From positions 1,273,533 to 1,305,532 of the forward strand of contig OZ242186.1 in NCBI GenBank assembly GCA_965205675.1: a stretch of DNA of 32,000 nucleotides, in the 5' to 3' direction. Both the position numbers and the translations under genes were made by a program. Below are positions 644 to 25,053 of the stretch, piece after piece (the stretch's first letter is position 1; every line of letters starts with the position of its first letter). The notes under the pieces were generated by a model. The model ran no database searches. It was not told the DNA's origin and was given only the letters and a program-made list of their open reading frames with translations. The DNA comes from Nitrosopumilus sp. Lineage in GTDB: Archaea; Thermoproteota; Nitrososphaeria; Nitrososphaerales; Nitrosopumilaceae.

Positions 644-2581
644 ATGACTGTAAGAGTATCTAGAGAATCCTCCGATATCGTGAAAGGAAAAATTCAAATT
701 CTGAAACAAATAATTCCAGAATGTTTTACAGAAGGGACTCTCGATATTGAGAAATTAAAGAATACTGTTGGTCAAACCTTGGACTCTAATGATGAAAAAT
801 ATACTCTGAATTGGGCAGGACGTAACGATACTTTCAAAAATATACAAATACCTATAAGGGATACTCTTGTACCAAACAAAAACGAATCTGTGAAATTTGA
901 TGATACAGAAAATATTTTCATTGAAGGAGAGAATCTTGAAGTTTTAAAGTTATTACAAAGATCATATTTTGGTAAAATCAAAATGATTTACATTGACCCG
1001 CCATACAACACAGGAAAAGATCTTATCTATAAAGATAATTTTCATGAAGATATATCCGAATATTTGAAAGAAACAGGACAGTCAAAAGATGGAATAAAAT
1101 TAACTACAAATCCAGAAACATCTGGGCGTTTTCATTCGGATTGGATTTCTTCTATGTACGCACGATTGTTTATAGCTAGAGATTTACTGACAGATGATGG
1201 TGTGATTTTTGTATCGATTGACGATAAAGAAGTTCATAATTTAAAACTAATAATGAATGAAATCTTTGGCGAAGAAAATTTTATTACGAATATAATTTGG
1301 GAGGGTGGCTTGAAGAATGATTCAACATTTTTTTCAATTTCTCACGATCATATTTTATGCTATGTGAAAAATCAATCTTTATTAAAAAATAATAAAACAA
1401 AATGGAGGTTAGAGAAAAAAGGTATTGATTCAATATATGAGCAAGTAAAAAAATTAAATGAAAATAGTTCTAATCATCAAATACTCTCAAAAGAATTAAA
1501 GAAATGGTATGGGGAATTAGATAAAAACGATCCAGCGTGGAAACATAGACATTATGATGACATTGATGAAAACGGTGTTTTTTTTGGAGGTGATATATCT
1601 TGGCCGGGAAGCGGAGGGCCAAGATATGACGTAATTCATCCAAAAACAAGAAAACCAGTAAAAATTCCAAGATCGGGATGGAGATATTCTAAACAAGAAA
1701 AAATGAATCAGCAAATTAGAGATAATAAAATTCAATTTGGCATAGATGAAACTACTGTTCCAAAAATAAAACGATATTTGCATGAAACTGAAGGTCAAGT
1801 GTACCCAAGTGTAATCTATAAAGATAGACGTGCTGCAAAACAAACACTTGATAGATTATTTCATACAGACATATTTGATGATCCAAAAGACGTAAATGTT
1901 ATTAAAGATTTAATTCGTTTAATTACAGAACGCGATGACATCATCCTAGATTTCTTTGCGGGTTCTGGAACTACTGCACATGCAGTCATGGAATTAAATA
2001 AAGATGATGAAGGAAATAGAAAATTTATTTGTATTCAAATACCAGAAATAATAATTGATAAACCAAAAAACAAATCTACACGAGACTTCTTAAAACAAAT
2101 AAAAAAACCCATTAATATCGCTGAAATATGCAAAGAAAGAATAAGACGTGTCATCAAAAATATAGATCCAAACTCAGATTTGGATCTGGGTTTTAAAGTA
2201 TTCAAACTTGCAAAATCCAATTACAAGATATGGGAAAATTATCTAGGTAAGGATGAAAAAGAATTGGAAAAACAAATTAAATTGTTTGAATCTCCTCTAA
2301 TAGAGAAATATACAGATGAAGATGTGATATACGAATGTATTATTAAAGAAGGATATAATTTCAACAGTAAAATTGAAAAATTAAAAATAAAATCAAATAC
2401 AGTATACAAAATTACGGATACGACTAATTCATTTTATATCTGTCTTGACAAAACAATTACAGATGATATTATCAAAGAAGTAAAGATAATTAATAATGAT
2501 ATCTTGATTTGTATTGATGCGGCACTTGATGATAGTCAAAAAACAAATCTGTCCAATCAGTGCAATCTAAAAACACTTTAG
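644..2581 (+). CDS. mod: Type III restriction-modification DNA methyltransferase (Mod; beta-class N6-adenine type)
   Basis: IYIDPPYNTG (motif IV) near aa 117. SDWISSMYARLFIARDLLTDDGVIFVSIDDKEVHNLKLIMNEIFGEENF is typical of Mod subunits. ILDFFAGSGTTAHAVMELN (motif I) lies near aa 440. Motif order IV then I, and res follows immediately downstream. Confidence 0.9.
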   Translation: MTVRVSRESSDIVKGKIQILKQIIPECFTEGTLDIEKLKNTVGQTLDSNDEKYTLNWAGRNDTFKNIQIPIRDTLVPNKNESVKFDDTENIFIEGENLEVLKLLQRSYFGKIKMIYIDPPYNTGKDLIYKDNFHEDISEYLKETGQSKDGIKLTTNPETSGRFHSDWISSMYARLFIARDLLTDDGVIFVSIDDKEVHNLKLIMNEIFGEENFITNIIWEGGLKNDSTFFSISHDHILCYVKNQSLLKNNKTKWRLEKKGIDSIYEQVKKLNENSSNHQILSKELKKWYGELDKNDPAWKHRHYDDIDENGVFFGGDISWPGSGGPRYDVIHPKTRKPVKIPRSGWRYSKQEKMNQQIRDNKIQFGIDETTVPKIKRYLHETEGQVYPSVIYKDRRAAKQTLDRLFHTDIFDDPKDVNVIKDLIRLITERDDIILDFFAGSGTTAHAVMELNKDDEGNRKFICIQIPEIIIDKPKNKSTRDFLKQIKKPINIAEICKERIRRVIKNIDPNSDLDLGFKVFKLAKSNYKIWENYLGKDEKELEKQIKLFESPLIEKYTDEDVIYECIIKEGYNFNSKIEKLKIKSNTVYKITDTTNSFYICLDKTITDDIIKEVKIINNDILICIDAALDDSQKTNLSNQCNLKTL

Positions 2582-2586
2582 GCTAT

Positions 2587-5169
2587 ATGATGGAACTGAA
2601 ATTTCAAAGCAATTTAGATTTTCAGTTAGATGCAATAAATTCTACTGTAGATATTTTTGAATCCCAAGAATTTACTCGAGAATCATTTGCCTTGATCTCA
2701 GAAAATGGGGTAATTCCAAACAAACTTGATTTGACACAAGAACAAATCTTAGCAAATATCAATAAAATCCAAAAAAGTAACAATATCGCACCAACCAATG
2801 AACTAAATGGAATGAACTTTTCAATAGAGATGGAAACCGGAACTGGTAAAACCTATGTGTATATCAGAACCGTTTTTGAATTATATCAAAATTATGGATT
2901 CAAAAAATTCATTGTGATTGTTCCTTCAATAGCAATAAAAGAAGGTGTTCTTAAAACCTTGGAAATTACCAAAAAACATCTTAAGGAAATCTATGCAAAT
3001 ACACCTTATAGTTACTACGAGTACGATTCAAAAAAAATCAACCTAATAAGACAATTTTCCAGATCAAATAAAATAGAAATTATGATTATGACAATTGATT
3101 CATTTAACAAAGACATCAACATAATGAACCAACAAAGAGACAATCTTTATGGAGAAAAACCAGTAGATCTTGTTAATAAAACTCAACCCATTCTGCTTTT
3201 GGATGAACCGCAAAACATGGAAAGTGACACTGCCAAGCAGGCAATTTCTAATTTGAATCCTTTGTTCACCCTGAGGTATTCTGCAACTCATAAAAATTAT
3301 TACAATCTGATATATCGATTAACCCCAGTTGATGCTTATCAGAAAAACCTTGTAAAGAAGATTGATGTAATGTCTGTTCTCAAGGAAGGTGATTTTAACA
3401 ATGTTTTTATCCGTTGCGTCAAAATCATAGCAGAAAAGAAAGGAATTAAGACAAAACTGTTGCTAAATAAAAAACTAGTAAATGGGTACAAGGCGACAGA
3501 AATGATTCTAAAATATGGAGAATGTCTTGCTCAGAAAACACACAATTCAGAGTATGATGGATTTATAGTAACTGAAATCAACGCAAGACACAACTTTGTT
3601 AAATTTTCAAATGGTATTAAGATTGGATTAGGAGAAGAACAAGGAGGAGACAGAAAAGAACTCATGCACATGCAAATAGAGCACACAATTCAAGAGCATT
3701 TTGAAAAATTTCTTATATTAAAACCACTTGGAATCAAACCGCTTTCATTGTTTTTCGTAGATAGCGTTGATAATTATCTTGCAAGAGATGGATTCATCAG
3801 AAAATCATTTGAAAAGTCTTTTGAAAAACTCAAAAAACAATACCGCGACTTTGAGAATATCGATGCCAAAGATATTCACTCAGGTTACTTTTCAAAACTA
3901 AAATCCGAAAAAGGGATGCAACAAGACAAAGACACTTTTGATCTGATCATGAGAGATAAGGAACGATTACTGTCATTTGATGAACCTATACAGTTTATTT
4001 TTTCACACTCTGCACTGCGGGAAGGTTGGGATAATCCCAACGTGTTTAACATTTGTACTCTGAATCAAACTATTTCGGGAATCAAAAAACGACAAGAAAT
4101 TGGAAGGGGTATGAGATTGCCGGTAAATCAAGAAGGAGATCGTCTTTATGGCGATCAGAATATTTTGACTGTAATTGCAAATGAAAACTATGCAAATTAT
4201 GCATCAAGACTACAGACGGAGTATGAAGAAGATTATGGTGCAGGTAGTTCTCCTGATATTCATAATAGAAAAAAGCGAACCGTGCTAAAACTAAAGAAGG
4301 GATTCAAACTCAATCCGGAATTTCAAGAACTTTGGAGACGCGTCTCTAAAAAAACAAAATATGCCATAAAACTAGATACTGGAAAATTAATTGATTCGTG
4401 TGTTTCTGAGATAGAGTCAAGTGTATCAGTAGATTCAATTAACATCCACATTACAACAGCATCCCTGGCATTGTCTGAAAACCAATCTCATTACAAAGTA
4501 GAGACGGATGTTTTAGGTACTGAAAGACCCCCAATCAAAAAGGATTTCCCGATACCTGATATTATAGAGCAGTTAAGCGATGAAACAAAACTAACCCGTT
4601 CTACAATTGTAAATATTCTAACAAAAATCAACAACTTGAATCTTGTATTTGCAAACCCTCAGTCATTCTTACTATCTGTTTCTCATATCATTAAAGAAAA
4701 ACTAGCTGACTTTCTTGTAGATGGTGTACAATATTTGGAAGTAGATGATTATTACAAAATGGAATTATTTCAAGACATTCTTACTTATGAAGATACAATT
4801 ATTCCTGTGAAGCATTCAATTTATGACAAAATAGTCTGGGATTCAAAAATTGAAGAAAAATTTGCCAATGACCTAAATGAAATGAATAATATCAAGCTCT
4901 TCATAAAATTACCTAACTGGTTTGTAATTGATACTCCCATTGGGAACTATAATCCTGATTGGGCAGTTGTCATAGAGGATGTTGATTCGCACAGAAGATC
5001 TAGAGAGAGATTGTATTTTGTAACTGAAACCAAGGCAATTCCAAATCTTAATGAATTAAGACCTAATGAAAAGAAAAAGATATCATGTGGAAAAAAACAC
5101 TTTGGAAAAATCAATGTTACATATCATGTTGCCACCAGTGTTGATAAATTACTGCAAAAACTTGCTTGA
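2587..5169 (+). CDS. res: Type III restriction enzyme Res subunit (SF2 helicase plus C-terminal PD-(D/E)xK nuclease)
   Basis: METGTGKTY (helicase motif I), LLLDEPQNM (motif II), SALREGWDNPNVF (motif VI-like), and C-terminal NPDWAV...FVTETK nuclease motif. ATG 2587 lies just after the mod stop. The track start GTG 2560 would overlap mod by 22 nt. Confidence 0.9.
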   Translation: MMELKFQSNLDFQLDAINSTVDIFESQEFTRESFALISENGVIPNKLDLTQEQILANINKIQKSNNIAPTNELNGMNFSIEMETGTGKTYVYIRTVFELYQNYGFKKFIVIVPSIAIKEGVLKTLEITKKHLKEIYANTPYSYYEYDSKKINLIRQFSRSNKIEIMIMTIDSFNKDINIMNQQRDNLYGEKPVDLVNKTQPILLLDEPQNMESDTAKQAISNLNPLFTLRYSATHKNYYNLIYRLTPVDAYQKNLVKKIDVMSVLKEGDFNNVFIRCVKIIAEKKGIKTKLLLNKKLVNGYKATEMILKYGECLAQKTHNSEYDGFIVTEINARHNFVKFSNGIKIGLGEEQGGDRKELMHMQIEHTIQEHFEKFLILKPLGIKPLSLFFVDSVDNYLARDGFIRKSFEKSFEKLKKQYRDFENIDAKDIHSGYFSKLKSEKGMQQDKDTFDLIMRDKERLLSFDEPIQFIFSHSALREGWDNPNVFNICTLNQTISGIKKRQEIGRGMRLPVNQEGDRLYGDQNILTVIANENYANYASRLQTEYEEDYGAGSSPDIHNRKKRTVLKLKKGFKLNPEFQELWRRVSKKTKYAIKLDTGKLIDSCVSEIESSVSVDSINIHITTASLALSENQSHYKVETDVLGTERPPIKKDFPIPDIIEQLSDETKLTRSTIVNILTKINNLNLVFANPQSFLLSVSHIIKEKLADFLVDGVQYLEVDDYYKMELFQDILTYEDTIIPVKHSIYDKIVWDSKIEEKFANDLNEMNNIKLFIKLPNWFVIDTPIGNYNPDWAVVIEDVDSHRRSRERLYFVTETKAIPNLNELRPNEKKKISCGKKHFGKINVTYHVATSVDKLLQKLA

Positions 5170-5305
5170 TTGTATAAAAAAAATCTAAAAAAAATTCAAA
5201 CGAATTCACATTTGACACGCAAAAACAGATGCATAGATCTGAATATGTTACTAGATTTGATAAATAATGAATGCTAATAAGATTAGTTCTTACTTGGGTT
5301 ATCCT

Positions 5306-5340
5306 AGGCGCGCCAATCTCTTTTTTATCACATTCAAATG
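5306..5340. repeat. 35-bp direct repeat, right copy
   Basis: Identical to 261-295. Its terminal ATG (5338-5340) is the start codon of ORF 5338-5640. Confidence 0.95.
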
Positions 5341-5640
5341 AAATGTTGGGATAAAGGATTGCCAGTACAGAAGACTAGAGCGTCTGCAAATATGTCATAC
5401 TATGAATTTTTTAAAATACCCGAAAAATGTCGCGGTTTTGAGTTTGTTGAAAAGTGGTGTGTGTGCCCTCTGTGTGAAATCAGAGTTCAGTTGTGCCGCA
5501 TAGGAATGCTAAATGATTTCATCTATGGGTATGAGAGATGTTCTGTATGTTTTGTAAAAATACCGTTGCCAAAATATATCACATCATTTCTAAAAAAACA
5601 ATCAAGTACAAAAAACCAAAAGACCCTGTCTTGTTTTTAG
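5338..5640 (+). CDS. Hypothetical small Cys-rich protein (possible zinc ribbon)
   Basis: 100-aa ORF with CVCPLC...CSVC cysteine pairs. The start codon lies inside the direct repeat. No other support. Confidence 0.25.
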   Translation: MKCWDKGLPVQKTRASANMSYYEFFKIPEKCRGFEFVEKWCVCPLCEIRVQLCRIGMLNDFIYGYERCSVCFVKIPLPKYITSFLKKQSSTKNQKTLSCF

Positions 5641-5789
5641 ACTGGAAATTCCACATCATTTGATATGCCAAGAGACATGATATGCGCTCTGAGAACTTTG
5701 AGATGGGATATCCAAAAAGAACATGCAAGAACATCAAAAAACTTTTTGGCATATGATTTCTTTGCAACCTTACAGGTAAGGGACTTTGG

Positions 5790-5799
5790 TTTATACATT
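5790..5799 (+). promoter_or_regulatory. TATA-like box TTTATACATT
   Basis: Ends 19 nt before ATG 5819. This favours ATG 5819 over the track's TTG 5786, which lies just upstream of the box (5790-5799). Confidence 0.35.
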
Positions 5800-5818
5800 G
5801 AATGAACCAAAAGGCTCC

Positions 5819-8653
5819 ATGCCATACAATACAAAGTCAATTCGCAAAAGACCGGTAAAGTCATTTTATTCCATGACTAATCCCAACATCCGCAAAAACT
5901 CCAAGGTATATCATATGCTAAAGCACGGTCCATTCCCTGAGAGTTTCTCATATCTTGTAAATGATGGCAAAATAACCAAGGAAGGAAGATGGCTGATGCT
6001 TGCATGTGATATGGGACTGTCGTTTGCAGAACTGTGTGTGCTTGTGTATATCGTCAGGTATTGTACCGGTACAATTTCACGCCAGATGATTCATGATTTT
6101 TTTGTGGGCGTGATGCCCTTGCAACGTGTCGTTAATACCTTATCCAAACTAAAGAGTGCAAAATATGTAAACGCTGATGCAACTTCTCTGGCAGTTACAG
6201 ATAAAACAAAATCTTTGGTAGACTCTCACAAGATAGAGTTTCAGCAACTGCACCTGTATGTTGAGACATTAACAAAATCAAAAAAGACTAATGTTCCAAT
6301 GGTAAAGGACGCCCCTCGCAAAAACTTTGAAGGAATAACAAACAGATCATGCATCCGCAAAAACTCCAAGGTGTATCATATGCTAAAGCACGGTCCATTC
6401 CCTGAGAGTTTCTCATATCTTGTAAATGATGGCAAAATAACCAAGGAAGGAAGATGGCTGATGCTTGCATGTGACATGGGACTGTCATTTGCAGAACTGT
6501 GTGTGCTCGTGTATATCGTCAGGTATTGTACCGGTACAATTTCACGCCAGATGATTCATGATTTTTTTGTGGGTGTGATGCCATTGCAAAGAGTTGTAGA
6601 CATACTCTCCAAACTAAAGAGTGCAAAATATGTAAACGCTGATGCGACTTCTCTGGCAGTTACAGATAAAACAAAATCTTTGGTAGACTCTCACAAGATA
6701 GAGTTTCAGCAACTGCACCTGTATGTTGAGACATTAACAAAATCAAAAAAGACTAATGTTCCAATGGTAAAGGATACTCCTCGCAAAAACTTTGAAGGAA
6801 TAACAAACAGATCATGCATCCGCAAAAACTCCAAGGTATATCATATGCTAAAGCACGGTCCATTCCCTGAGAGTTTCTCATATCTTGTAAATGATGGCAA
6901 AATAACCAAGGAAGGAAGATGGCTGCTGCTTGCATGTGACATGGGACTGTCATTTGCAGAGCTGTGTGTGCTCGTGTATATCGTCAGGTATTGTACCGGT
7001 ACAATTTTACGCCAGATGATTCATGATTTTTTTGTGGGTGTGATGCCATTGCAAAGAGTTGTAGACATACTCTCCAAACTAAAGAGTGCAAAATATGTAA
7101 ACGCTGATGCGACTTCTCTGGCAGTTACAGATAAAACAAAATCTTTGGTAGACTCTCACAAGATAGAGTTTCAGCAACTGCACCTGTATGTTGAGACATT
7201 AACAAAATCAAAAAAGACTAATGTTCCAATGGTAAAGGACGCCCCTCGCAAAAACTTTGAAGGAATAACAAACAGATCATGCATCCGCAAAAACTCCAAG
7301 GTATATCATATGCTAAAGCACGGTCCATTCCCTGAGAGTTTCTCATATCTTGTAAATGATGGTAAAATAACCAAGGAAGGTCGGTGGCTGCTGCTTGCAT
7401 GTGACATGGGACTGTCATTTGCAGAACTGTGTGTGCTTGTGTATATCGTCAGGTATTGTACCGGTACAATTTCACGCCAGATGATTCATGATTTTTTTGT
7501 AGGCGTGATGCCCTTGCAACGTGTCGTTAATACCTTATCCAAACTAAAGAGTGCAAAATATGTAAACGCCGATGCGACTTCTCTGGCAGTTACAGATAAA
7601 ACAAAATCTTTGGTAGACTCTCACAAGATAGAGTTTCAGCAACTGCACCTGTATGTTGAGACATTAAAAAAATCAAAAAAGACTAATGTTCCAATGGTAA
7701 AGGACGCCCCTCGCAAAAACTTTGAAGGAATAACAAACAGATCATGCATCCGCAAAAACTCCAAGGTATATCATATGCTAAAGCACGGTCCATTCCCTGA
7801 GAGTTTCTCATATCTTGTAAATGATGGCAAAATAACCAAGGAAGGAAGATGGCTGATGCTTGCATGTGACATGGGACTGTCATTTGCAGAACTGTGTGTG
7901 CTTGTGTATATCGTCAGGTATTGTACCGGTACAATTTCACGCCAGATGATTCATGATTTTTTTGTGGGTGTGATGCCATTGCAAAGAGTTGTAGACATAC
8001 TCTCCAAACTAAAGAGTGCAAAATATGTAAACGCTGATGCGACTTCTCTGGCAGTTACGGGCAAAACTAGAATATTGATAGATTCACAACAATCAGATCT
8101 TCTGAAATTGTATCAGTATGTTGAGACATTAAAAAAATCAAAAAAGAATAATGTTCAAATGGTAAAGGATACTCCTCGCAAAAACTTTGAAGGAATAACA
8201 AACAACTCGTACATCCGCAAAAACTCCAAGGTGTATCATATGCTAAAGCACGGTCCATTCCCTGAGAGTTTCTCATATCTTGTAAATGATGGCAAAATAA
8301 CCAAGGAAGGAAGATGGCTGCTGCTTGCATGTGATATGGGACTGTCATTTGCAGAACTGTGTGTGCTTGGATACCTGGTTATGTTGCATCGCAGTTGGCT
8401 AAAAGACCCAGGTTCCATGTCGTGGATGCATAGACCATTGGTGTATACTTCGTTTGACGAGTTTCTTGGTTTTTGGTCAGTTCAAAAATTCTTTGCAAAG
8501 TTCAAAAAGATGGGATTCATCAAGGTGCACACACCGGGACTTCGCGCAGTGAAATTTAACCCGGGATTCATAGATGCATTCATCAAATCCCATACACGAG
8601 AACTTGACGAGCTTGAGGTATACGTAAAGGAACATCTTGAACTGCCTTTGTGA
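5819..8653 (+). CDS. Repeat protein: five near-identical 155-aa winged-helix-like modules plus a sixth, diverged C-terminal module
   Basis: Single uninterrupted ORF across the 465-bp array. Each unit carries LSFAELCVLVYIVRYCTGTISRQMIHDFFVGVMPLQRVV(N/D)(T/I)LSKLKSAKYVNAD...LAVTDKTKSLV, a MarR-like helix-turn-helix plus wing pattern (fold inferred by eye). Confidence 0.75.
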   Translation: MPYNTKSIRKRPVKSFYSMTNPNIRKNSKVYHMLKHGPFPESFSYLVNDGKITKEGRWLMLACDMGLSFAELCVLVYIVRYCTGTISRQMIHDFFVGVMPLQRVVNTLSKLKSAKYVNADATSLAVTDKTKSLVDSHKIEFQQLHLYVETLTKSKKTNVPMVKDAPRKNFEGITNRSCIRKNSKVYHMLKHGPFPESFSYLVNDGKITKEGRWLMLACDMGLSFAELCVLVYIVRYCTGTISRQMIHDFFVGVMPLQRVVDILSKLKSAKYVNADATSLAVTDKTKSLVDSHKIEFQQLHLYVETLTKSKKTNVPMVKDTPRKNFEGITNRSCIRKNSKVYHMLKHGPFPESFSYLVNDGKITKEGRWLLLACDMGLSFAELCVLVYIVRYCTGTILRQMIHDFFVGVMPLQRVVDILSKLKSAKYVNADATSLAVTDKTKSLVDSHKIEFQQLHLYVETLTKSKKTNVPMVKDAPRKNFEGITNRSCIRKNSKVYHMLKHGPFPESFSYLVNDGKITKEGRWLLLACDMGLSFAELCVLVYIVRYCTGTISRQMIHDFFVGVMPLQRVVNTLSKLKSAKYVNADATSLAVTDKTKSLVDSHKIEFQQLHLYVETLKKSKKTNVPMVKDAPRKNFEGITNRSCIRKNSKVYHMLKHGPFPESFSYLVNDGKITKEGRWLMLACDMGLSFAELCVLVYIVRYCTGTISRQMIHDFFVGVMPLQRVVDILSKLKSAKYVNADATSLAVTGKTRILIDSQQSDLLKLYQYVETLKKSKKNNVQMVKDTPRKNFEGITNNSYIRKNSKVYHMLKHGPFPESFSYLVNDGKITKEGRWLLLACDMGLSFAELCVLGYLVMLHRSWLKDPGSMSWMHRPLVYTSFDEFLGFWSVQKFFAKFKKMGFIKVHTPGLRAVKFNPGFIDAFIKSHTRELDELEVYVKEHLELPL
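5888..8369. repeat. 465-bp tandem repeat, 5.34 copies
   Basis: ATCCGCAAAAACTCCAAGGT recurs at 5888, 6353, 6818, 7283, 7748 and 8213, an exact 465-bp period. Identity with the previous copy is lost at 8370. Confidence 0.95.
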
Positions 8654-8663
8654 TAAAATCGGG

Positions 8664-8673
8664 TTAAATACAA
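8664..8673 (+). promoter_or_regulatory. TATA-like box TTAAATACAA
   Basis: 17 nt separate the box from ATG 8691. Shares the TTAA(A)TACAA motif with 13118, 16906 and 21613. Confidence 0.4.
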
Positions 8674-8690
8674 TTTCTGTCGTATAATAC

Positions 8691-9557
8691 ATGAGCAAGC
8701 ACTCCTTCGTATGGTATAGAATAAGGCAGTTTGCCTCAGCTGAGAAAATAGATGATGTTCCGAGCCAGGACCTGTTGGTATTATGTGGCTCCATATCTGA
8801 TATTGTCATTGCAATTTTCCGTCTTGATGAGTCTGGAACATCCATATACCTACGGGTTCCTGATTTCTGCGCCAGTCAGGTCGAATCAATCATCTCCTTT
8901 GGTAAGGAAAAACAAGAGTATCCAGTATGCACAAAGATACAATCACTAGTAGAGCTCAAACTTAGAAAAAAATCCGTGTACCCACTTGTATCGAATCCTG
9001 CTGACATGCACCATAACGTCTTTTCGCTGTTCTCATCTGCACCGCAGGGAGCAATATTTCTAAAGCTATCGCATACTGATTCCAAAAAAACGAAAAGGCA
9101 GTACGATTCCATAAAACGCAGATATGAAAAACAAAAAGATGATGCAAAAAACACAAACTGGCACGAGTCTGCATGCAAGGCAAAGGCTGATTGCCGTCGA
9201 TTCTTTCATGCACAGTTATTCTTTGGAACCCTCACCCCGTCAGACATTGATGACTTTGAGCGGATTCTGCCCTGTGTCGGACGGGATATAGAGCCAAACG
9301 GATTGGTGCGAAAAAAATCAATCTTGTACAATTTAAAACATCCGAGAAGAGCACTTGATTTTTTGGAAAAGATACTGCTTGAAAAATCAAAAAAATCCGG
9401 AATGGTACTCTCCGAAAATGACATTGTACCTTTTGTTAGATTCCCTGAAAATGCAGACAGATTACAGATGGAGCCTGCCTCGTCTGAGACATTCTCATCA
9501 GGTCTCGCTGCAAATGTTCCTGACCCTCAAAAAGAATTTGAGGATGGTCTGTCATGA
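8691..9557 (+). CDS. Hypothetical protein
   Basis: 288-aa ORF with no hydrophobic segments. Its stop overlaps the next start (ATGA at 9554-9557). No motif recognised. Confidence 0.6.
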   Translation: MSKHSFVWYRIRQFASAEKIDDVPSQDLLVLCGSISDIVIAIFRLDESGTSIYLRVPDFCASQVESIISFGKEKQEYPVCTKIQSLVELKLRKKSVYPLVSNPADMHHNVFSLFSSAPQGAIFLKLSHTDSKKTKRQYDSIKRRYEKQKDDAKNTNWHESACKAKADCRRFFHAQLFFGTLTPSDIDDFERILPCVGRDIEPNGLVRKKSILYNLKHPRRALDFLEKILLEKSKKSGMVLSENDIVPFVRFPENADRLQMEPASSETFSSGLAANVPDPQKEFEDGLS

Positions 9558-10978
9558 TTATTGCCGTCTTTGCACTGGTTATATTTGCAACGACATTTGC
9601 AACCATCATACCTGCAATGGCAGACTCTGATTACATTGTAATCAAAGAAAATGTGTTGGAAAAGGGACACGGTAATTTGTATGTGGACATAAGTGGACGC
9701 ATCACTGGGGCATACGTTGAGATTGTGCTGTCTGCCCCCGACGGCTCGACATCTAATGCACAATCAAAGTTGGTAAATGATGTCTTGTCATATTTTATCT
9801 ATCTTGAGAGATCAAGTGATGCCGGACTGTACAGAATTGATATTACAGCATATGACTATGATGATAACAATGATGATGACGACTATGTCATTGTAAATGA
9901 ATTGACGGATTATTTTATACTGCTTGATAGTGGCTCCTCAATTGATATACACATTGAAAAAAATGCGTCAGTCGAATGTGTGCCAAAAACTGATTCCTAT
10001 GGCGAACCTTTGTACAAAAAAGGCGGATGTATCACTCCTGTACATGTGATAACGGCTGCAACTTTTGGTGTGAATTTTATCAATGATGATTACAAGACTC
10101 ATAACCTGCAGTTTGAAAAAGACGAAACAGGTCCTATAATTCCTGGTCTTAACACAATCATATTTCCACCACGCGGCGAACATGAATACCAATGTGCATA
10201 TCATCCGTGGGTAAAAGGAACGATACATGTTGAGAGGGTAAGGCAATTACAGTATGTGGAACCCCCTCCACTTGTAATTCCTGATGCACAAGACCATGAT
10301 CCTACAAACCCAAATCCCATATCCACTGATGCACAATATTCCCTTGATGATTGTGGACGGTGCTATGTCGGAAAGGTAACAAAGATAGTTGACGGTGATA
10401 CCCTATTTGTAAATGGCAAATCAATCCGTCTTGCATTGGCAAATGCTCCGGAGAGAAATCAAAAAGGATTTGCAGATGCAAAACTTTTCGTAGAGCAAAC
10501 ATGCAGAGTGGGGGACTCTGTGTTGGTGGACATTGATGATCTCAAACCATCTGACTCTTATGGCAAGCCTATTGCAAAAATTATTTGCGGTGAGATAAAT
10601 ATCAATGCAGAACTGCTTCAAAATGAAAACGCCGTACCATACGAATGGTTTTGCAAAAAGACAGAATTTGTAGATGAGCCGTGGGGCGCTGCTGCTTGTG
10701 GTGTTACAGAGTCAGGAGAACTAGAACCTGCAAGCATTCTAGATCTCGATATTCCCGAAGAGGTTGCATCAGTTGATATAGATATTATTAACGATACTGT
10801 AGGAGTAATACAATCTGGTCTGACCCCGTATGATGCCAGTCTGGAGATTCTGATATTATTGATAATTGCAATTGTGGTGATGGCGATACTGGCACTCATC
10901 ATACTGTCAAGACGCAGCACCGGCACCAGGGACAGCCTTGCATCTGATGATGCAGAGACATTCATCTATCTGAAATAA
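9554..10978 (+). CDS. Secreted, C-terminally membrane-anchored nuclease: cupredoxin-like region plus staphylococcal-nuclease (SNase/thermonuclease) domain
   Basis: N-terminal signal MIIAVFALVIFATTFATIIPAMA. THNLQF...HEYQCAYHPWVKGTIHV resembles a cupredoxin His/Cys/His ligand pattern with no axial Met. VDGDTLFVNGKSIRLALANAPE...DSYGKPIAKIICGEININAELLQNENA matches the SNase signature. C-terminal TM segment ILILLIIAIVVMAILALIILS. GAGGA lies 9 nt upstream of the ATG. Confidence 0.7.
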   Translation: MIIAVFALVIFATTFATIIPAMADSDYIVIKENVLEKGHGNLYVDISGRITGAYVEIVLSAPDGSTSNAQSKLVNDVLSYFIYLERSSDAGLYRIDITAYDYDDNNDDDDYVIVNELTDYFILLDSGSSIDIHIEKNASVECVPKTDSYGEPLYKKGGCITPVHVITAATFGVNFINDDYKTHNLQFEKDETGPIIPGLNTIIFPPRGEHEYQCAYHPWVKGTIHVERVRQLQYVEPPPLVIPDAQDHDPTNPNPISTDAQYSLDDCGRCYVGKVTKIVDGDTLFVNGKSIRLALANAPERNQKGFADAKLFVEQTCRVGDSVLVDIDDLKPSDSYGKPIAKIICGEININAELLQNENAVPYEWFCKKTEFVDEPWGAAACGVTESGELEPASILDLDIPEEVASVDIDIINDTVGVIQSGLTPYDASLEILILLIIAIVVMAILALIILSRRSTGTRDSLASDDAETFIYLK

Positions 10979-11300
10979 TTGTCAGGACCACAAAAATAGA
11001 ACTGTTTTTACGTGATCTGTTTTTCTTCAAGTAAACCTTTGATTTGTGTATGAAATCTCTTAAAAATTAAAATAGATCCAAGTAAGAGATAAAACGATTG
11101 GCTCAGATTATGGTTTGCAATATCATCATCTCTAAATGATAAGAGCGTCACGGCTTCATCGTTGCCAGTCATTTTTACTTGATTCATACAAAACATTGGC
11201 TTTAAATATAAGTTTGTTCTAATAATAGTAGAATGGTTTTATCTTCAAACTATGAAATCTCCAACTGGATCTTTTTTATCAGTAAATGTGTTAATTGAAC

Positions 11301-11326
11301 ACGTTTATTAAATGCGTTTATTAGAT
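11301..11326. repeat. 13-bp unit x2 (ACGTTTATTAAAT / GCGTTTATTAGAT)
   Basis: CGTTTATTA recurs at 11302 and 11315. Confidence 0.7.
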
Positions 11327-11332
11327 AAGTTC

Positions 11333-11362
11333 GTAATCGGTGGCCTCCACGCCACCGATTAC
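11333..11362. repeat. Perfect hairpin GTAATCGGTGGC-CTCCAC-GCCACCGATTAC
   Basis: 12-bp perfect stem with a 6-nt loop. It is GC-rich within an AT-rich intergenic region. Confidence 0.9.
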
Positions 11363-11365
11363 AAA

Positions 11366-11414
11366 CTGATTCTACTGACTGATTCTACTGACTGATTCTA
11401 CTGACTGATTCTAC
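11366..11414. repeat. Tandem repeat CTGATTCTACTGA, 3.8 copies
   Basis: Perfect 13-bp units at 11366, 11379 and 11392, and a partial unit at 11405. The array starts 3 nt after the hairpin and lies ~70 nt upstream of the TFB-like start. Confidence 0.95.
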
Positions 11415-11483
11415 AAAATTACTTGATGGACATTCAAAATAACCCGCTTTAAATCCAAAAAATATCTCCCTTTGTGACGACAT

Positions 11484-12164
11484 ATGAGTAGTTGTATTTT
11501 ATGCGGTAATGGTAATTTTGTTAAGGTTGAGACTGAGATCGTATGCTCAAAGTGCGGTGTTATCTCACATTATGATACGGCAGAAACGACGCCTGTTGGC
11601 TCAAAGTCGCGTATGCCAGTACATGAAGAGCAAAAAATCGGCTCAAAGAATATCATAGTAGATGGCATCACACTGCCACACATCAACAAAAAACGTACAG
11701 AGCAAATAATCTCAAGTCGCGACAGTCATCTTGACTCTTTTTCGAAAATCTGCTCCACTCTCGGACTGCCAAAGTATGTTACAGTAAATGCATTTGTGTT
11801 ATTCCAGAAATTAAAACCGGCAAAGCTGGGGTCTGGCAAGACTGCCGTGTTCTGTATTCATCAGGCGTGTATGGATGCAGGTATAACGTACGATGAGGGG
11901 AGACTGATTGCAGTTACGAGAACGCAACTTGGTTTGAAAAGACAGATATTTCTCACAAAGGCAATATATCAGGTAAAGCGGGTCGCACTAGAGCAGAAAC
12001 TCATTGTACCCTCATCTGATGATTCACATGAAAAATATTTTCTAAGAAAGATGATTCGTCCGAACCAAATGCGTGAGGCAGTTAAGATATCTGGCATGTT
12101 TGGAGGCAAAACCACTGACCAAAAGATGCGGCGTGTAGGGAGGTATCTTGATGCATACAACTAA
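11484..12164 (+). CDS. Short TFIIB/TFB-like transcription factor (Zn ribbon plus a single cyclin-like repeat)
   Basis: N-terminal C-x2-C-x13-C-x2-C ribbon (CILCGNGNFVKVETEIVCSKCG). Then SKICSTLGLPKYVTVNAFVLFQKLKPAKLGSGKTAVFCIHQACMDAGI, resembling a TFB cyclin fold. At 226 aa it is too short for two cyclin repeats. Confidence 0.6.
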   Translation: MSSCILCGNGNFVKVETEIVCSKCGVISHYDTAETTPVGSKSRMPVHEEQKIGSKNIIVDGITLPHINKKRTEQIISSRDSHLDSFSKICSTLGLPKYVTVNAFVLFQKLKPAKLGSGKTAVFCIHQACMDAGITYDEGRLIAVTRTQLGLKRQIFLTKAIYQVKRVALEQKLIVPSSDDSHEKYFLRKMIRPNQMREAVKISGMFGGKTTDQKMRRVGRYLDAYN

Positions 12165-13122
12165 TGATGATAGTAGCCTCAGCATTATTGCGCTAAGCAA
12201 GATATCGCTGCCAGAACTTGTCGTGATTCCATCGCAGTACGGCATTGAGCAGATTGTTACATCCTTTGCCCCTGATGCTGGCACTGATGAGTTGTCAATC
12301 AAAGTTGTAGAATCCAAAAACGGCTATGTTCTAGTCGATGGAATCGATGTATATTATGCTGCAAAAAAGATGCGTCTCAAGGAGATAAACGCATATGTCG
12401 TAAATGACTCTGTTGATCCCCAGATAACATACATTCGATATACAAAAAAAGACCAGCAAAATCCAATCAAGATAGTACGCCAGATGCGAAGATATGTCAA
12501 GGATAATGGTCTTCCAAAGACAATGCAGATGATGCATCTAGAACCAGTATACTCCAAAGTGTATGCCCTTGAATTTGATACAAAACTTGAAGATACATTA
12601 GATGAACTCTTTGATACGGCATACTCTAACGGGGTACGCTCCACTGCACCACTGCCAATGCTGCGGTTCATATGCAATCTCGATGAGGATGCACAGCATG
12701 TAGTAATTGGGAAACTCCAAAAACATGCAAAAGAGAACAGCGGTTACCGGTGGCCGCACAACGAGTTTCTAAAGGACATGATCCCCGAGTCTGATAATCC
12801 CTCAAAATCTGAGGGAGAGAAAAAACAAGACACTGCAAGCTCAGAGGTTACAACCTTTGAATGCACAAAGTGCAAGACTCCCCATCTGGTGCACGACGGA
12901 CGGGTCGCACCATACAAGGAGCAATCCGGACTGAAGATAATGGAGGGCGATATTGCAGACCCTATGATTTCACTTGGAAAAAAGCATGCAAAACATCTGG
13001 GAATTGATCTAGGCGATGTCCCAGAGGTGATTACTTCTGAGTCGGACTGGAAGTCAGTCACATCTAAGATGAGGGGTAGAAAGTTTGTAGTCTTGCTTGG
13101 GGCAGAATTTAACCCCTCTTAA
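12151..13122 (+). CDS. ParB/Srx-like N-terminal domain protein with C-terminal zinc-ribbon-like CxxC pair
   Basis: NGYVLVDGIDVYYAAKKMRLKEINAYVV resembles the ParB nuclease/CTPase-fold core. FECTKCKTPHLVHDGR lies near the C-terminus. GGGAGGT sits at 12138-12144, 6 nt before the ATG. Overlaps the TFB-like stop by 14 nt. Confidence 0.55.
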   Translation: MHTTNDDSSLSIIALSKISLPELVVIPSQYGIEQIVTSFAPDAGTDELSIKVVESKNGYVLVDGIDVYYAAKKMRLKEINAYVVNDSVDPQITYIRYTKKDQQNPIKIVRQMRRYVKDNGLPKTMQMMHLEPVYSKVYALEFDTKLEDTLDELFDTAYSNGVRSTAPLPMLRFICNLDEDAQHVVIGKLQKHAKENSGYRWPHNEFLKDMIPESDNPSKSEGEKKQDTASSEVTTFECTKCKTPHLVHDGRVAPYKEQSGLKIMEGDIADPMISLGKKHAKHLGIDLGDVPEVITSESDWKSVTSKMRGRKFVVLLGAEFNPS

Positions 13123-13134: not shown

Positions 13135-13620
13135 ATGTATAATATGATAAGGCAAATCTTTTTTGTCCTGCAACCGTCGTCGCTGCAGGATTCCTTATCT
13201 TTACCGCTTTCTGGACTCTCCTATACAAATGAGCTGCTAATAGTGTCTTCTGCTGTTCTTGTACTCGGAGGTCTGTCAATTGGAGTGTTTTACTCTGACA
13301 CTGAATCCACATCTTCAATGCTTGTTGAAATTAACAGGATTAATCGTGATATTTTGAACGAAAAGATAGATGTTATCTCTGCTGATACGTCTGCAACACA
13401 CGTGGTGTTTTCTCTCAGCAATTACGGAAGTAGAGATACGGAGATAACGGCAGTACTTGACTCTGATGCAAATAGCATTGACTGTACAAGCAACAATGCA
13501 GATTCTGCTAACTTTGTGGTTCTGACTGGCAAGCACATGGAGGTCTCATGTGTACTGCAAGGAGATGACAAGTATTATGCAGTAACTGACACGGGGCAGA
13601 TTCTAAAGGTGATACCATGA
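13135..13620 (+). CDS. FlaF/FlaG/pilin-like protein (hydrophobic N-terminal helix plus beta-rich domain)
   Basis: ELLIVSSAVLVLGGLSIGVFY helix followed by IDVISADTSATHVVFSLSNYGSRDTEITAVL, the strand-N-x-G pattern seen in archaeal FlaF/FlaG-type proteins. The true start may be ATG 13144. Confidence 0.5.
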   Translation: MYNMIRQIFFVLQPSSLQDSLSLPLSGLSYTNELLIVSSAVLVLGGLSIGVFYSDTESTSSMLVEINRINRDILNEKIDVISADTSATHVVFSLSNYGSRDTEITAVLDSDANSIDCTSNNADSANFVVLTGKHMEVSCVLQGDDKYYAVTDTGQILKVIP

Positions 13621-15002
13621 AGTATTATTTTATGCTGATGCTGTTACTTTGTGCTGCTACTTGCATTCCTTTTGCACATGCATGGGAGTTCGGAATATTT
13701 GCACCAGGAGAGTCATACCATTATACCATATGCGATAACATAACACGCGATGCATTCACTGCAACTGCATCAAAGTGCTATGATATGCAGATGCGCGTAA
13801 TTGAGAATGTGAAGATGGATTCAGGATACGTGTGGATAATGCACGTTATAATGAATGGGTCTGATCATGACCTGGTTTTACTTGATGAGAATTTTGATGT
13901 AACCTCATTACACAACAGATACATTGAAGAGTCGCTCTCATCTACGCTTTTCTGGCTGCCTGATGATTCTCTCAGAGAGTTTGATCCAGTTATAGGAGAT
14001 ATCCTTGGAAGCGTGCCATCAAAATTCAAGGATGCTGAGATCATAGTTGCAGATTTTTTGGATTATGATGAAGGACAAAAAGAATATTCGATTTTATGGA
14101 CAAATGAATATGAAAACCAAATATGGATACGCGAGGGGGTTGCACTGCCAGTTAGAGCTAGCGTGTATTCTGAGATACATGCTGGGTTTGGAGAGAATCT
14201 TGCACACTCGTATGATCTAAAGTCGTATGTTTCTTCTGAAGAGTATCTCTTTGACCTACTTTCATCTGTGAGGTATCCTGATGATGCCTTCGTCGATGAT
14301 GCCTTCGTCGATGATGCCTTCGTCGATGATGCCTTCGTCGATGATGCCTTCGTCGATGATGCCTTCGTCGATGATGCCTTCGTCGATGATGCCTTCGTCG
14401 ATGATGCCTTCGTCGATGATGCCTTCGTCGATGATGCCTTTGTTGATGATGCCTTTGTTGATGATACCTTTGTCGATGATACCTTTGTCGATGATACCTT
14501 TGTCGATGATACCTTTGTCGATGATACCTTTGTCGATGATACCTTTGTCGATGATACCTTTGAGAACGAGGTATTGTCTGATGAAGAGTTCTATGGTGCA
14601 GATTTCGTTGGTGATGATTTGAGTGCGGATGAACCATCTCACCATGCTGATGATGAACCATCTCACCATGCTGATGATGTTCTATCTGAAATTCCTGAGT
14701 TTTTCCCCTCTGAGATAGTTAATTCTTCTTTGAATGATTCTGATGTTTTGTCTTTCTCAAATGCTTCATCGGATCTCAAACCCTCTGAAACTATGCCCTC
14801 CGAGCCAGTAGATGATATTGCAAACCCACAATCTCAATTTGATATAGACCCAAAGGATGAATCAGACTATGTAGATGATGCGCTCCCTGGAGATAATGAA
14901 ACTGAAACTCTAGAACGGGACGCTCAGAAATTACAAGATGAAGATGAACCATTTGGTTTTATTTTGTCTTTCTTTGAACCTCTTCTGGAAATTTTCAAGT
15001 GA
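13617..15002 (+). CDS. Secreted, highly acidic repeat protein (DDAFV/DDTFV pentapeptide array)
   Basis: Signal peptide MKYYFMLMLLLCAATCIPFAHA. AGGTGAT lies 3 nt upstream of the ATG. ATGA overlap with the previous gene. Contains a 19-unit pentapeptide array and a D/E/S-rich C-terminus. Confidence 0.7.
   Translation: MKYYFMLMLLLCAATCIPFAHAWEFGIFAPGESYHYTICDNITRDAFTATASKCYDMQMRVIENVKMDSGYVWIMHVIMNGSDHDLVLLDENFDVTSLHNRYIEESLSSTLFWLPDDSLREFDPVIGDILGSVPSKFKDAEIIVADFLDYDEGQKEYSILWTNEYENQIWIREGVALPVRASVYSEIHAGFGENLAHSYDLKSYVSSEEYLFDLLSSVRYPDDAFVDDAFVDDAFVDDAFVDDAFVDDAFVDDAFVDDAFVDDAFVDDAFVDDAFVDDAFVDDTFVDDTFVDDTFVDDTFVDDTFVDDTFVDDTFENEVLSDEEFYGADFVGDDLSADEPSHHADDEPSHHADDVLSEIPEFFPSEIVNSSLNDSDVLSFSNASSDLKPSETMPSEPVDDIANPQSQFDIDPKDESDYVDDALPGDNETETLERDAQKLQDEDEPFGFILSFFEPLLEIFK
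14280..14564. repeat. 15-bp tandem repeat x19 in three homogeneous blocks
   Basis: GATGATGCCTTCGTC x10, GATGATGCCTTTGTT x2, GATGATACCTTTGTC x6, and a terminal GATGATACCTTTGAG. Counted directly; in frame. Confidence 0.95.
14628..14675. repeat. 24-bp tandem repeat x2 (GATGAACCATCTCACCATGCTGAT; DEPSHHAD)
   Basis: Two perfect in-frame copies. Confidence 0.9.
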
Positions 15003-15772: not shown

Positions 15773-16556
15773 GTTCCATCTCTTCTCTGGGGTTGATGTG
15801 AATATCCGGAGAATATCCCTTAGCATATTTGTCGGCATAACAGTTCTGCTTGTAGGACAGGTCTTTGTCAATGAATTCCTTGTGAGTTTTAATGTAGAGA
15901 CATCAGAGACTGCAAAGAGTGGTGGAGAGATAATCATACAAAACAACGGTGTAATTCAAGCACATGATGTCATGGCGTACTTGAAATTTACAGACGTTCC
16001 AAAAATAACCGATCATAATTGTTTGGAGGGAATAATTGATAGCAAATACAAAACAATAACCATACACTTTGACAGATTCTCTACAAACATTGCATGCGTG
16101 ATACATCTTGAGGAATTCTCAGGTGCAGATGTTACAATAACTTCCGATGATAGGACGGCGCACACCGGCAAATACCAAGAGTTGTGGGGTCTGCTTTACT
16201 TTGTATCTGCCATGTTTTTCACAGGTGCAGGACTGGTGATTTTTGCAACATACGGGTTTGCAAGGAGATGTTACTATAAGGCGGTGTTTTACTTTGGATG
16301 TCGAGGATTTGTGCCAATGGATTGCAGTGCGGAGATGTGCTCTGATATGCAAAAAGAATTCTCAATCAAGGTCTCTGATGCTGACATATCCATATTGTAT
16401 CACATCTCGAACCAAAGAAAAACACTGTACCAAATAAAAGCACATACAAAATTATCTGTATCCTATGTGGCATATCGCATCATGCGCTTGAGATGTCACG
16501 GACTGGTAGAAAAAGACAACACCCCATCAGAGTTTATTCTAAACTATTTCAGATGA
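15741..16556 (+). CDS. Membrane protein with FlaF/FlaG/pilin-like N-terminus and C-terminal winged-helix-like domain
   Basis: NIRRISLSIFVGITVLLVGQVFV helix followed by GGEIIIQNNGVIQ. A second TM segment LLYFVSAMFFTGAGLVIFATYGF. C-terminal DADISILYHISNQRKTLYQIKAHTKLSVSYVAYRIMRLRCHGLVEK. The start is ambiguous: TTG 15705, ATG 15741 or GTG 15798. Confidence 0.55.
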   Translation: MSFLVHHRKHKFHLFSGVDVNIRRISLSIFVGITVLLVGQVFVNEFLVSFNVETSETAKSGGEIIIQNNGVIQAHDVMAYLKFTDVPKITDHNCLEGIIDSKYKTITIHFDRFSTNIACVIHLEEFSGADVTITSDDRTAHTGKYQELWGLLYFVSAMFFTGAGLVIFATYGFARRCYYKAVFYFGCRGFVPMDCSAEMCSDMQKEFSIKVSDADISILYHISNQRKTLYQIKAHTKLSVSYVAYRIMRLRCHGLVEKDNTPSEFILNYFR

Positions 16557-16905
16557 GGTTCCTGATGATTGTGATGCCTTGCGAGTAATTTGATTTTGTT
16601 TTTTTACTATTTTCTTTCCTCCAACATGCCTCTAATTCATTATACCAGTTATGGGGTATGATCACTTTGAAAAGTTATGCCCAAAACTTGGCATGTCTTA
16701 AAATCGATCAGATGTGTTAACAGCAACATGGGAACCGCAAACACCAAAAGGAAGATGATCCGTATGTATCAAGCCTCATGCCTAGAATTTGTTTTTAGTT
16801 TCCATTTTTGTTCCTGATGGGGCAGATGACCTTTGCCGGTTCTGGCAAATAGCCTGAGAATGTTTCAAAAATCCCCCATCTCTTTTTCTGCGATAATTAT
16901 TCCCC

Positions 16906-16915
16906 TTTAATACAA
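16906..16915 (+). promoter_or_regulatory. TATA-like box TTTAATACAA
   Basis: 15 nt separate it from ATG 16931. Preceded by CCCC, as at 13114. Confidence 0.4.
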
Positions 16916-16930
16916 CTCTTTCTCTACTGT

Positions 16931-24879: not shown

Positions 24880-25053
24880 TTGACACGTTGGAAAAAAGAT
24901 GAGAGTGATTTTTTAGTAAGATTATCAGATGATGGAAGACACAGTACAATTTGCAGAATACCAAAACCGATCTTGCAATTCCTAAATAATCCAGAAGCTA
25001 TTAGGTTTGTAATTGAGGGTAAGAAGATCACAGTCAAAAGAGGTTTGAAATAG
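24880..25053 (+). CDS. AbrB/SpoVT-like small DNA-binding protein (57 aa, TTG start); absent from the ORF track
   Basis: My own translation: (M)TRWKKDESDFLVRLSDDGRHSTICRIPKPILQFLNNPEAIRFVIEGKKITVKRGLK*. The RIPKPI...I-x-F-x-I-x-G-x-K-I-x-V pattern is typical of AbrB/MazE swapped-hairpin domains. Its TAG shares a base with the methyltransferase GTG (TAGTG). Confidence 0.45.
   Translation: MTRWKKDESDFLVRLSDDGRHSTICRIPKPILQFLNNPEAIRFVIEGKKITVKRGLK

Follow-up and report, generated by a model that had tools for sequence, protein, structure and literature searches.

The window analysed here, a stretch of 32,000 nucleotides (nt) of Nitrosopumilus sp. DNA (contig OZ242186.1), carries a gene in which a 465-bp sequence is repeated in tandem. 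Tandem Repeats Finder placed the array at 5887-8369, with a period of 465 bp, 5.3 copies, 95% matches, 0% indels, and a score of 4420. The array lies wholly inside a single stop-free open reading frame (ORF) that starts at either a TTG at 5786 or an ATG at 5819 and ends at 8653, and its presence in ORF 5819-8653 is far beyond chance. The repeat units follow each other in exact register and align without gaps (Table 1), as the initial annotation of this DNA had described for the period, the unit starts, and the intact frame. Copies 1 to 4 differed pairwise by only 7 to 25 nt (94.6 to 98.5% nt identity), copy 5 differed from each of these by 33 to 52 nt (88.8 to 92.9%), and copy 6 showed 3 differences across its first 157 nt, beyond which its DNA was unrelated to that of the other copies. 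There were 60 variable sites among copies 1 to 5; the differences within copies 1 to 4 were mostly synonymous, and every copy carried private changes with the frame intact throughout. When the 944-amino-acid (aa) product was searched with a hidden Markov model (HMM) of the family described below, six domains were recovered, each with an E value of approximately 1e-52 to 1e-57. The gene encodes six complete copies of a small basic MarR-like winged-helix protein in one chain, five of them nearly identical. The whole protein is basic, with an isoelectric point of 9.6 and a net charge of +59.

The first five units are designated A1 to A5 and the terminal one B. Units 1 to 5 carry one of two versions of a short cassette, in the order A-B-B-A-B, and this alternation of linked variants, already seen in the initial annotation, was confirmed by the copy alignment. 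The two versions differ by 11 substitutions within unit positions 231 to 255, 7 of which fall in codons that still specify the same residue and 4 in the two codons that change, and the effect on the protein is limited to two residues, N-T versus D-I. The changes peculiar to unit A5 all lie in its last 154 nt. At the junction between A5 and B the window protein reads NNSY/IRK and L001, the closest relative found, reads YNSY/IRK, and the A5 tail retains the ancestral A-to-B junction. If the TTTATA sequence upstream of the gene acts as a promoter, which is possible, it would imply a leaderless mRNA starting at the ATG at 5819.

Table 1. Coordinates of the features of the window
Feature	Position	Strand	Basis or remark
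TTTATA, possible archaeal TATA box	5790-5795	+	read from the sequence, ~26 nt upstream of the ATG at 5819; putative function
Six-unit winged-helix protein gene, 944 aa	5819-8653	+	ORF, family HMM
N-terminal leader (MPYNTKSIRKRPVKSFYSMTNPN)	5819-5887	+	alignments show homology with the linkers between units and with the extension at the N terminus of single-unit relatives
Unit A1, cassette type A (RVVNTLSKL)	5888-6352	+	copy alignment
Variant cassette of unit 1 (N83-T84)	6118-6142	+	11 linked substitutions; predicted recognition helix, unit residues 78-90
Unit A2, cassette type B (RVVDILSKL)	6353-6817	+	copy alignment
Unit A3, cassette type B	6818-7282	+	copy alignment
Unit A4, cassette type A	7283-7747	+	copy alignment
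Unit A5, cassette type B	7748-8212	+	copy alignment; initial 311 nt equal the array consensus, with no private change
Cassette positions in units 2 to 5	6583-6607, 7048-7072, 7513-7537, 7978-8002	+	same unit positions
Diverged tail of unit A5	8059-8211	+	34 substitutions compared to the consensus of copies 1 to 5, mostly nonsynonymous
Unit B, terminal ancient paralogue; insertion of ~10 aa, basic wing	8213-8650	+	protein alignments
N-part of unit B, homogenized with the A units (3 differences per 157 nt)	8213-8369	+	array call, copy alignment
X288, conserved neighbour of no known family	8691-9557	+	follows the winged-helix gene(s) in every locus
Membrane-anchored nuclease, 474 aa, with cupredoxin-like and staphylococcal-nuclease-like domains	9554-10978	+	PDB profile searches
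Palindrome GTAATCGGTGGC-CTCCAC-GCCACCGATTAC, 12-bp stem	11333-11362	.	follows the nuclease gene and precedes the TFIIB gene; may be a hairpin or a binding site
13-bp repeat ACTGATTCTACTG, 3.8 copies	11365-11414	+	directly after the palindrome
TFIIB/TFB homologue, 226 aa (zinc ribbon and cyclin fold)	11484-12164	+	profile match to PDB TFIIB core, E value 3.3e-5; zinc ribbon, 0.03
X324, conserved 324-aa gene overlapping the TFIIB gene	12148-13122	+	candidate ParB-like partner; ParB identity unconfirmed

An AlphaFold2 model of a single unit, built from an eight-row alignment, had a predicted local distance difference test score (pLDDT) of 79.7 and a predicted template-modelling score (pTM) of 0.75. 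In this model a short helix and a hairpin are followed by helices at unit residues 31-41, 46-58, 65-72, and 78-90, by strands at 94-96 and 100-103 that form a two-strand wing, and by helices at 105-113 and 115-133, and residues 133-155 are disordered. This order of elements is that of the MarR fold, namely alpha1, alpha2, an alpha3-alpha4 helix-turn-helix (HTH), a beta-hairpin wing, and alpha5/alpha6. Compared to the PDB with Foldseek, the unit gave a best 50 matches that were all MarR-family regulators, several of them solved on operator DNA, with probabilities of approximately 1, E values of 3e-3 to 5e-2, and template-modelling scores (TM-scores) of 0.4 to 0.5; the modules had been called winged-helix-like from the start, and both the model and these matches agree with that call. 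Each unit is predicted to begin with an N-terminal extension and a constant N-part of 53 aa, to continue with an HTH and its wing, and to end in C-terminal helices, and disordered linkers of approximately 23 aa join one unit to the next. A hydrophobic window that had raised the prospect of a membrane span in each unit coincides with helix alpha2 of the winged-helix core and contains charged residues, and the span was rejected. The residues N-T or D-I are placed in the middle of the predicted recognition helix 78-90, where helical periodicity would put them on one face with Q79, R80, and K87, turned toward the DNA.

Compared to MarR-family proteins such as MftR (8ylg), OhrR (2pfb), and MarR (5h3r), the unit has the same predicted topology of helix, HTH, beta-hairpin wing, and C-terminal helices and is likewise small and basic. 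It differs from them in matching no MarR sequence model, in carrying an extra conserved N-terminal element of 30 residues, and in occurring as six units in one chain rather than as a homodimer. Neither the unit nor any of 19 family members passed for a Pfam family, and only scattered HTH matches with E values of 0.006 to 0.3 came close; no NCBIfam or PHROG model matched the unit or its relatives, the MarR-type models (MarR, MarR_2, and HTH_27) included; and a sequence-profile search of the PDB with the unit found nothing significant. MarR dimers are formed by their N- and C-terminal helices and bind palindromic or pseudopalindromic operators. A two-unit AlphaFold2 model of the window protein had a pLDDT of 82 and a pTM of only 0.51, and the geometry between units is therefore not confident. 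An arrangement of the six units as three intramolecular MarR-like pseudo-dimers is a possibility to which AlphaFold gives no support at that pTM. The archaeal DNA-coating winged-helix protein TrmBL2 was among the fold matches of the two-unit model.

A word-index search of 5.8 billion proteins returned one relative of the window protein, and an exhaustive HMMER search with the unit profile against 1.84 billion representative proteins returned 18 family representatives. The window protein alone has six units, three representatives have two (the P0001 cluster, P0003, and P0018), and about a dozen are single-unit proteins of 140 to 224 aa, the single-unit versions for which the initial annotation had proposed a homologue search. 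A further candidate, P0017, was set aside; its five matches were to a 32-residue stretch that is probably an unrelated low-complexity repeat. Scans of IMG/VR with two profiles found no relative, and a BLASTN search of positions 5000-12000 against plasmid and phage collections found no match. The identical protein, annotated as starting at an internal Met (912 aa), is recorded once, on one 2.01-Mb NCBI/ENA contig, and it is the only allele of the six-unit gene in public data, with a copy number based on a single assembly. The libraries searched contain no description of this sequence family, which is very rare although its fold is of known kind, and the six-unit form, five of its units nearly identical, is unique among the 1.84 billion representatives. 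The six-unit gene is a rare, recent expansion.

We recovered 11 loci containing family genes from public assemblies, 8 of which are distinct. The closest relative, L001, lies on the chromosome of a Nitrosopumilus metagenome-assembled genome (OZ253567.1), and its ORF of 326 aa consists of a leader, one A-type unit, a linker, and one B-type unit. There is one unit in L008 to L010 (marine contigs), and two are fused in L001 and L003 to L005. In the high-GC relatives L006 (9372-10615) and L007 (4656-6492), respectively, two and three units are encoded by separate adjacent genes with 4-nt start/stop overlaps, and these genes look one lost stop codon short of the fused forms. The leader of the window protein resembles both the N-terminal extension of single-unit proteins and the inter-unit linkers in alignments, and each unit therefore represents a whole ancestral protein. 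The C-terminal part of unit B is 18 to 20% identical to the A units of the window at the aa level, and comparisons of A with B C-parts gave 17 to 21% overall, but it is 53% identical to that of the second L001 unit, and unit B is therefore orthologous to the latter; its insertion of approximately 10 residues is also present in single-unit relatives. The initial annotation had regarded the C-terminal domain as an older, diverged version of the same module; this domain is not a product of the local amplification but an ancient B-type paralogue found in other genomes as well.

The two-unit relatives (L001, L003 to L005, and P0018) resemble SarS of Staphylococcus (PDB 1p4x), in which two MarR/SarA-like halves are likewise fused. 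SarS mimics a dimer. It was the top PDB match of the two-unit model, with 288 aligned columns, a TM-score of 0.22 to 0.26, and a root-mean-square deviation of 16 Å; at such TM-scores the relative placement of the halves differs from that in SarS or is undefined. SarS shares no sequence similarity with the family, is bacterial, and has two anciently diverged halves rather than five near-identical units plus one. The initial annotation had known of no described family with this architecture, and that statement holds for the six units and for the sequence family but not for the fusion of two such halves, which SarS exemplifies.

Ratios of nonsynonymous to synonymous differences (pN/pS) among units 1 to 4 ranged from 0.06 to 0.21, which indicates that each of these copies has been under purifying selection since its origin. 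The variants that they share group the copies in conflicting ways: site 109 unites copies 3 and 4, the cassette 1 and 4, site 156 copies 2 and 3, site 386 copies 4 and 5, and sites 423-426 copies 2 and 5. Site 109 and the cassette, the cassette and site 386, and site 156 and sites 423-426 each failed the four-gamete test, and some of the patches involved were several nucleotides long. The presence of all four combinations at several site pairs means that gene conversion or crossing-over has taken place between units, a conclusion that is well supported and that had been anticipated from the alternating cassettes. The conserved N-parts provide a second view of this process. Within a locus, the 53-residue N-parts of paralogous units are 96% identical at the aa level in the window (A versus B), 89% in L001, and 87 to 98% in L006 and L007, compared to 18 to 61% for the HTH, wing, and C-terminal part. 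At the DNA level, A and B N-parts are 97% identical in the window (96% at third positions) and 92% in L001 (85%), and N-parts compared between the window and L001 genomes are only 74 to 78% identical (46 to 57% at third positions). Because identity is higher within than between genomes, the N-parts must have been homogenized inside each genome.

The duplication that gave rise to A and B is also present in relatives in other genomes, and copies 1 to 4 are the youngest, with copy 5 carrying an older tail. This supports the suggestion in the initial annotation of at least two rounds of amplification. The array ends at 8369, which is also the end of the stretch held in common with unit B, and the spacing of this stretch, 465 bp, is the array period. 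We propose that in a two-unit ancestor gene conversion held the N-parts near-identical and so would have maintained two stretches of approximately 157 nt at a distance of 465 bp. Unequal crossing-over between them would then have duplicated the A unit at least twice to give five A units followed by B, a first round yielding a copy whose old tail persists in copy 5 and a later round yielding copies 1 to 4. Conversion would afterwards have shuffled variants among the copies, with purifying selection keeping them intact. Homology across the shared stretch of approximately 157 nt is the probable starting point of the unequal crossovers by which the A unit was amplified. The family offers living examples of every stage, from a single gene to adjacent paralogues, a two-unit fusion, and the six-unit array, and it makes a mechanism visible in which a gene-converted constant N-part would both keep the units compatible and seed unequal crossing-over.

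In all 11 loci, one and the same block follows immediately downstream of the family gene or genes, and it begins with a protein of approximately 290 to 410 aa (X288 in the window) and then one of approximately 460 to 480 aa (the nuclease). Wherever the contig reaches, the block continues with a palindrome, a TFIIB of approximately 225 aa, and an overlapping gene for a protein of approximately 320 aa (X324 in the window). The nuclease, which is always paired with the winged-helix gene, has a cupredoxin-like domain of the blue-copper type and hydrophobic segments at both ends, and it is a membrane or extracellular protein. A role of the winged-helix protein as a small terminase in virus packaging was considered and dropped; the downstream nuclease is a staphylococcal-nuclease/cupredoxin membrane protein, and no capsid genes were seen. 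Searches of Pfam, NCBIfam, and PDB profiles gave X324 no match to ParB.

In almost every related locus a long palindrome occupies this place, and its symmetry is conserved. That of L001 (approximately 13365-13395) equals the window palindrome with two compensatory pair changes, and long palindromes of different sequence occur at the same place in L004 (17383-17440), L006 (13386-13431), L007 (9263-9308), and L009 (5331-5378). Arms range from 12 to 28 nt across the loci, with symmetry kept while the sequence changes, and the palindromes of L006 and L007 have outer arms in common and inner arms that differ with full compensation. The palindrome could be a hairpin or cruciform (an oriT-like or processing site) or a site bound by a dimer. 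The initial annotation had pointed to the iteron-like repeats at 11301-11414 as possible targets of the winged-helix protein. This proposal gained no support, since the aligned site in L001 has no tandem counterpart of the 13-bp repeat, and the palindrome is the better candidate target, its link to the winged-helix protein being hypothetical. Elsewhere in the window there were three imperfect matches to the palindrome half-site and two to the 13-bp motif, compared to approximately 0.9 expected, all within coding regions.

The element that carries this gene is best described as an integrated, conjugative-element-like mobile element of a Nitrosopumilus-type ammonia-oxidizing archaeon. The window contains a FlaI-like ATPase gene at 28662-30329 (FlaI, E value 1.9e-66 but below the equivalog cutoff; T2SSE, 6.5e-29), multi-pass membrane proteins, and a weak PrgI/VirB3 match, and the modules upstream of the family genes in relatives contain MCM in some loci and PolB with a primase, or neither, in others. 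Thaumarchaeal integrative and conjugative elements (ICEs), as described by Krupovic et al. (2019, PMC6563490), have a TFIIB gene directly upstream of a ParB-like gene, a pairing reported as specific to them, and also ATPases of the FlaI/PilT type and replication modules that vary. The window resembles these elements in its TFIIB gene with the partner gene that follows, its FlaI-type ATPase, its membrane proteins, the variable replication modules (MCM, PolB), and its restriction-modification cargo, and the sections of that paper drawn on here make no mention of the winged-helix family or the nuclease. Two points limit the assignment. Neither VirB4 nor VirD4 was found in the 32-kb window with Pfam or NCBIfam, although these genes may lie outside it, and the proteins of 616, 646, and 911 aa have neither a Walker A motif nor a VirB4/VirD4 match in the same libraries. 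Since the ParB identity of X324 is also unconfirmed, an ICE is a best fit only. Rfam found no match in the window, and there are no tRNAs.

Taken together, the above-described results are, we think, probably best explained by a real gene of an ICE-like element in which six MarR-like units, five of them produced by amplification of the A unit, form a multivalent DNA-binding regulator or organizer. The analyses show the anatomy of the gene, its fold, family, and synteny, and the concerted evolution and selection of its units, whereas DNA binding, its target, the regulatory role, and the crossover mechanism are inferred. A role in DNA binding is supported by the fold and charge of the protein, by the way in which its HTH has diversified between paralogues, and by the unvarying position of the gene at the head of the cassette. 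The recognition helices of the units would bind DNA of their own element, and the protein would act as a multivalent regulator or organizer of the transfer/partition cassette. The constant N-part would serve for contacts between units or with a partner, DNA specificity would depend on the variable HTH and wing, and five A units would raise avidity or lengthen the footprint. Several observations weigh against this explanation. The E values of the fold search are modest and its TM-scores are approximately 0.45; the two-unit model does not support a defined MarR-like pairing of neighbours; and the wing of the A unit has no basic residue. In addition, no target site was identified, and a comparison of the promoters of family genes revealed no common palindrome or repeat.

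Other functions would also account for parts of the data. AspA, a small winged-helix protein of the Sulfolobus plasmid pNOB8, works with ParB and ParA in partition, and the window protein might similarly be a centromere-binding adaptor, its units coating or bridging a site that resembles a centromere and bringing in the ParB-like protein encoded downstream. The gene is always co-directional and in one block with TFIIB and the candidate ParB-like gene, a long palindrome is conserved inside that block, a multivalent basic protein would suit spreading or bridging, and the match to TrmBL2 points the same way. We nevertheless consider this role doubtful, given that X324 gave no ParB match in Pfam, NCBIfam, or the PDB, that no ParA-type ATPase was seen in the window, that AspA was absent from the top structural matches, and that two unrelated genes lie between the winged-helix gene and X324. 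It is rather less probable that the protein initiates replication by reading iterons, with extra units matching the repeat arrays of an origin. The plasmid initiators RepA, RepE, and pi have two winged-helix domains, and tandem winged-helix modules are found here too, as are weak matches to HTH_36 and to viral "replication initiator" models, amid many other winged-helix matches. Repeats suitable as iterons could be the 13-bp repeat of 3.8 copies in the window or the 25-bp repeat of 11.5 copies near the MCM gene of L001, and in relatives the gene sits where the replication module meets the transfer module. The fold matches, however, are of the MarR type and not the Rep type, no Rep family was found in Pfam or PHROGs, and the gene is tied to the transfer cassette, the upstream module being MCM, PolB/primase, or neither, depending on the locus. 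Moreover, the 13-bp repeat lacks its tandem counterpart in L001, the nearest repeats in the window are 2.7 kb away, and L001, which has the large iteron array, has only two units.

Winged-helix domains can also mediate protein contacts, and the units could be scaffolds that bind proteins, for example X288 or the transfer apparatus, or an anti-defence decoy, with repetition raising valency. The N-part rather than the HTH is the best-conserved region of the family, the A-unit wing is devoid of basic residues, and X288 is adjacent in all loci, all of which would fit. The strong net positive charge and the structural neighbours, all of them DNA-binding regulators, do not, and paralogous units diverge most in the HTH and wing, as is usual when DNA specificity diversifies; we regard a scaffold or decoy as quite improbable. 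We judged it highly improbable that the array is an artefact of assembly in which a true gene of two or three units was over-extended. The gene is known from one contig only, and short-read assemblers have difficulty with 465-bp repeats that are 95 to 98% identical. The copies of an over-extended repeat would all be the same, whereas each of the five copies has private, mostly synonymous substitutions with no frame break. The 2.01-Mb length of the contig suggests a long-read assembly, and the number of units varies in related loci too (one, two, or three).

The preferred explanation, a multivalent DNA-binding regulator or organizer, has parallels among other conjugative elements. In the sections of the reports considered here, TcpK of pCW3 (PMC6137059) and RdfS of ICEMlSymR7A (PMC11963761) are winged-HTH proteins that form multimers on repeated or extended sites and control transfer or excision. 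These are likewise winged-helix proteins of conjugative elements, but according to the same sections the multimer there is assembled from separate small subunits, compared to one that is hard-wired in a single chain here. Neither protein was among the top structural matches of the window protein, and there is no relaxase or recombinase context at this locus. If the units bind DNA, the gene provides a natural hard-wired multimer with which to ask how valency and recognition-helix variants alter site choice; if they do not, it remains a clear example of recent amplification within a gene that is under purifying selection. In either case it brings to light a winged-helix family that lacks annotation and is a marker of a conserved cassette in mobile elements of ammonia-oxidizing archaea, the transfer and regulation of which are essentially unstudied.

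The repeats of transcription activator-like (TAL) effectors are helical hairpins of 33 to 35 aa that each read one base, and recombination reshuffles them. The array described here is like those of TAL effectors in its near-identical coding repeats, in having few variable residues (N-T versus D-I) at the predicted DNA-reading place, and in its recombination. It differs from them in that the repeat is a whole 155-aa winged-helix protein, and a role of these residues in specificity is hypothetical. A more speculative idea, which we think unlikely to be correct, is that the array is a DNA reader tuned by recombination, in which gain, loss, and recombination of units and swaps of cassettes by gene conversion would change how long a DNA array the protein occupies on its own element, and of what sequence, and thereby control the timing of transfer. 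An example of a target would be the 13-bp repeats next to the hairpin, which are also expanded here, and the principle would be that of TAL effectors built from whole MarR-like domains, in archaea.

The window contains several other features. Just upstream of the array gene is a type III restriction-modification pair (Mod, 644-2581; Res, 2560-5169) with a GC content of 29 to 33%, and approximately 200 bp upstream of mod, at 380-439, are six copies of a perfect 10-bp repeat (CATTCCTTCT), which is a possible phase-variation tract since the unit is not a multiple of three. A second low-GC island (approximately 30%) at 25053-27725 encodes an N6/N4 DNA methyltransferase of 527 aa and a 362-aa partner of no known family, and it is probably a further restriction-modification module that has been inserted into the element. 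Tandem expansions are generally common in these elements. A 461-aa downstream gene in the window has a 15-bp repeat of 18.7 copies (14280-14560) and a 24-bp repeat of 2.2 copies (14628-14679), and its L001 orthologue (16282-17016) has a 15-bp repeat of approximately 25 copies together with 12- and 21-bp arrays. The 25-bp repeat of L001 (4105-4392, 98% matches), which is intergenic and beside MCM, is likely an origin or iteron array. Short tandem repeats are also found at the 5' end of the FlaI-like ATPase gene of the window (28724-28853), where a 15-bp unit occurs in 5.1 copies and a 12-bp unit in 2.2 copies.

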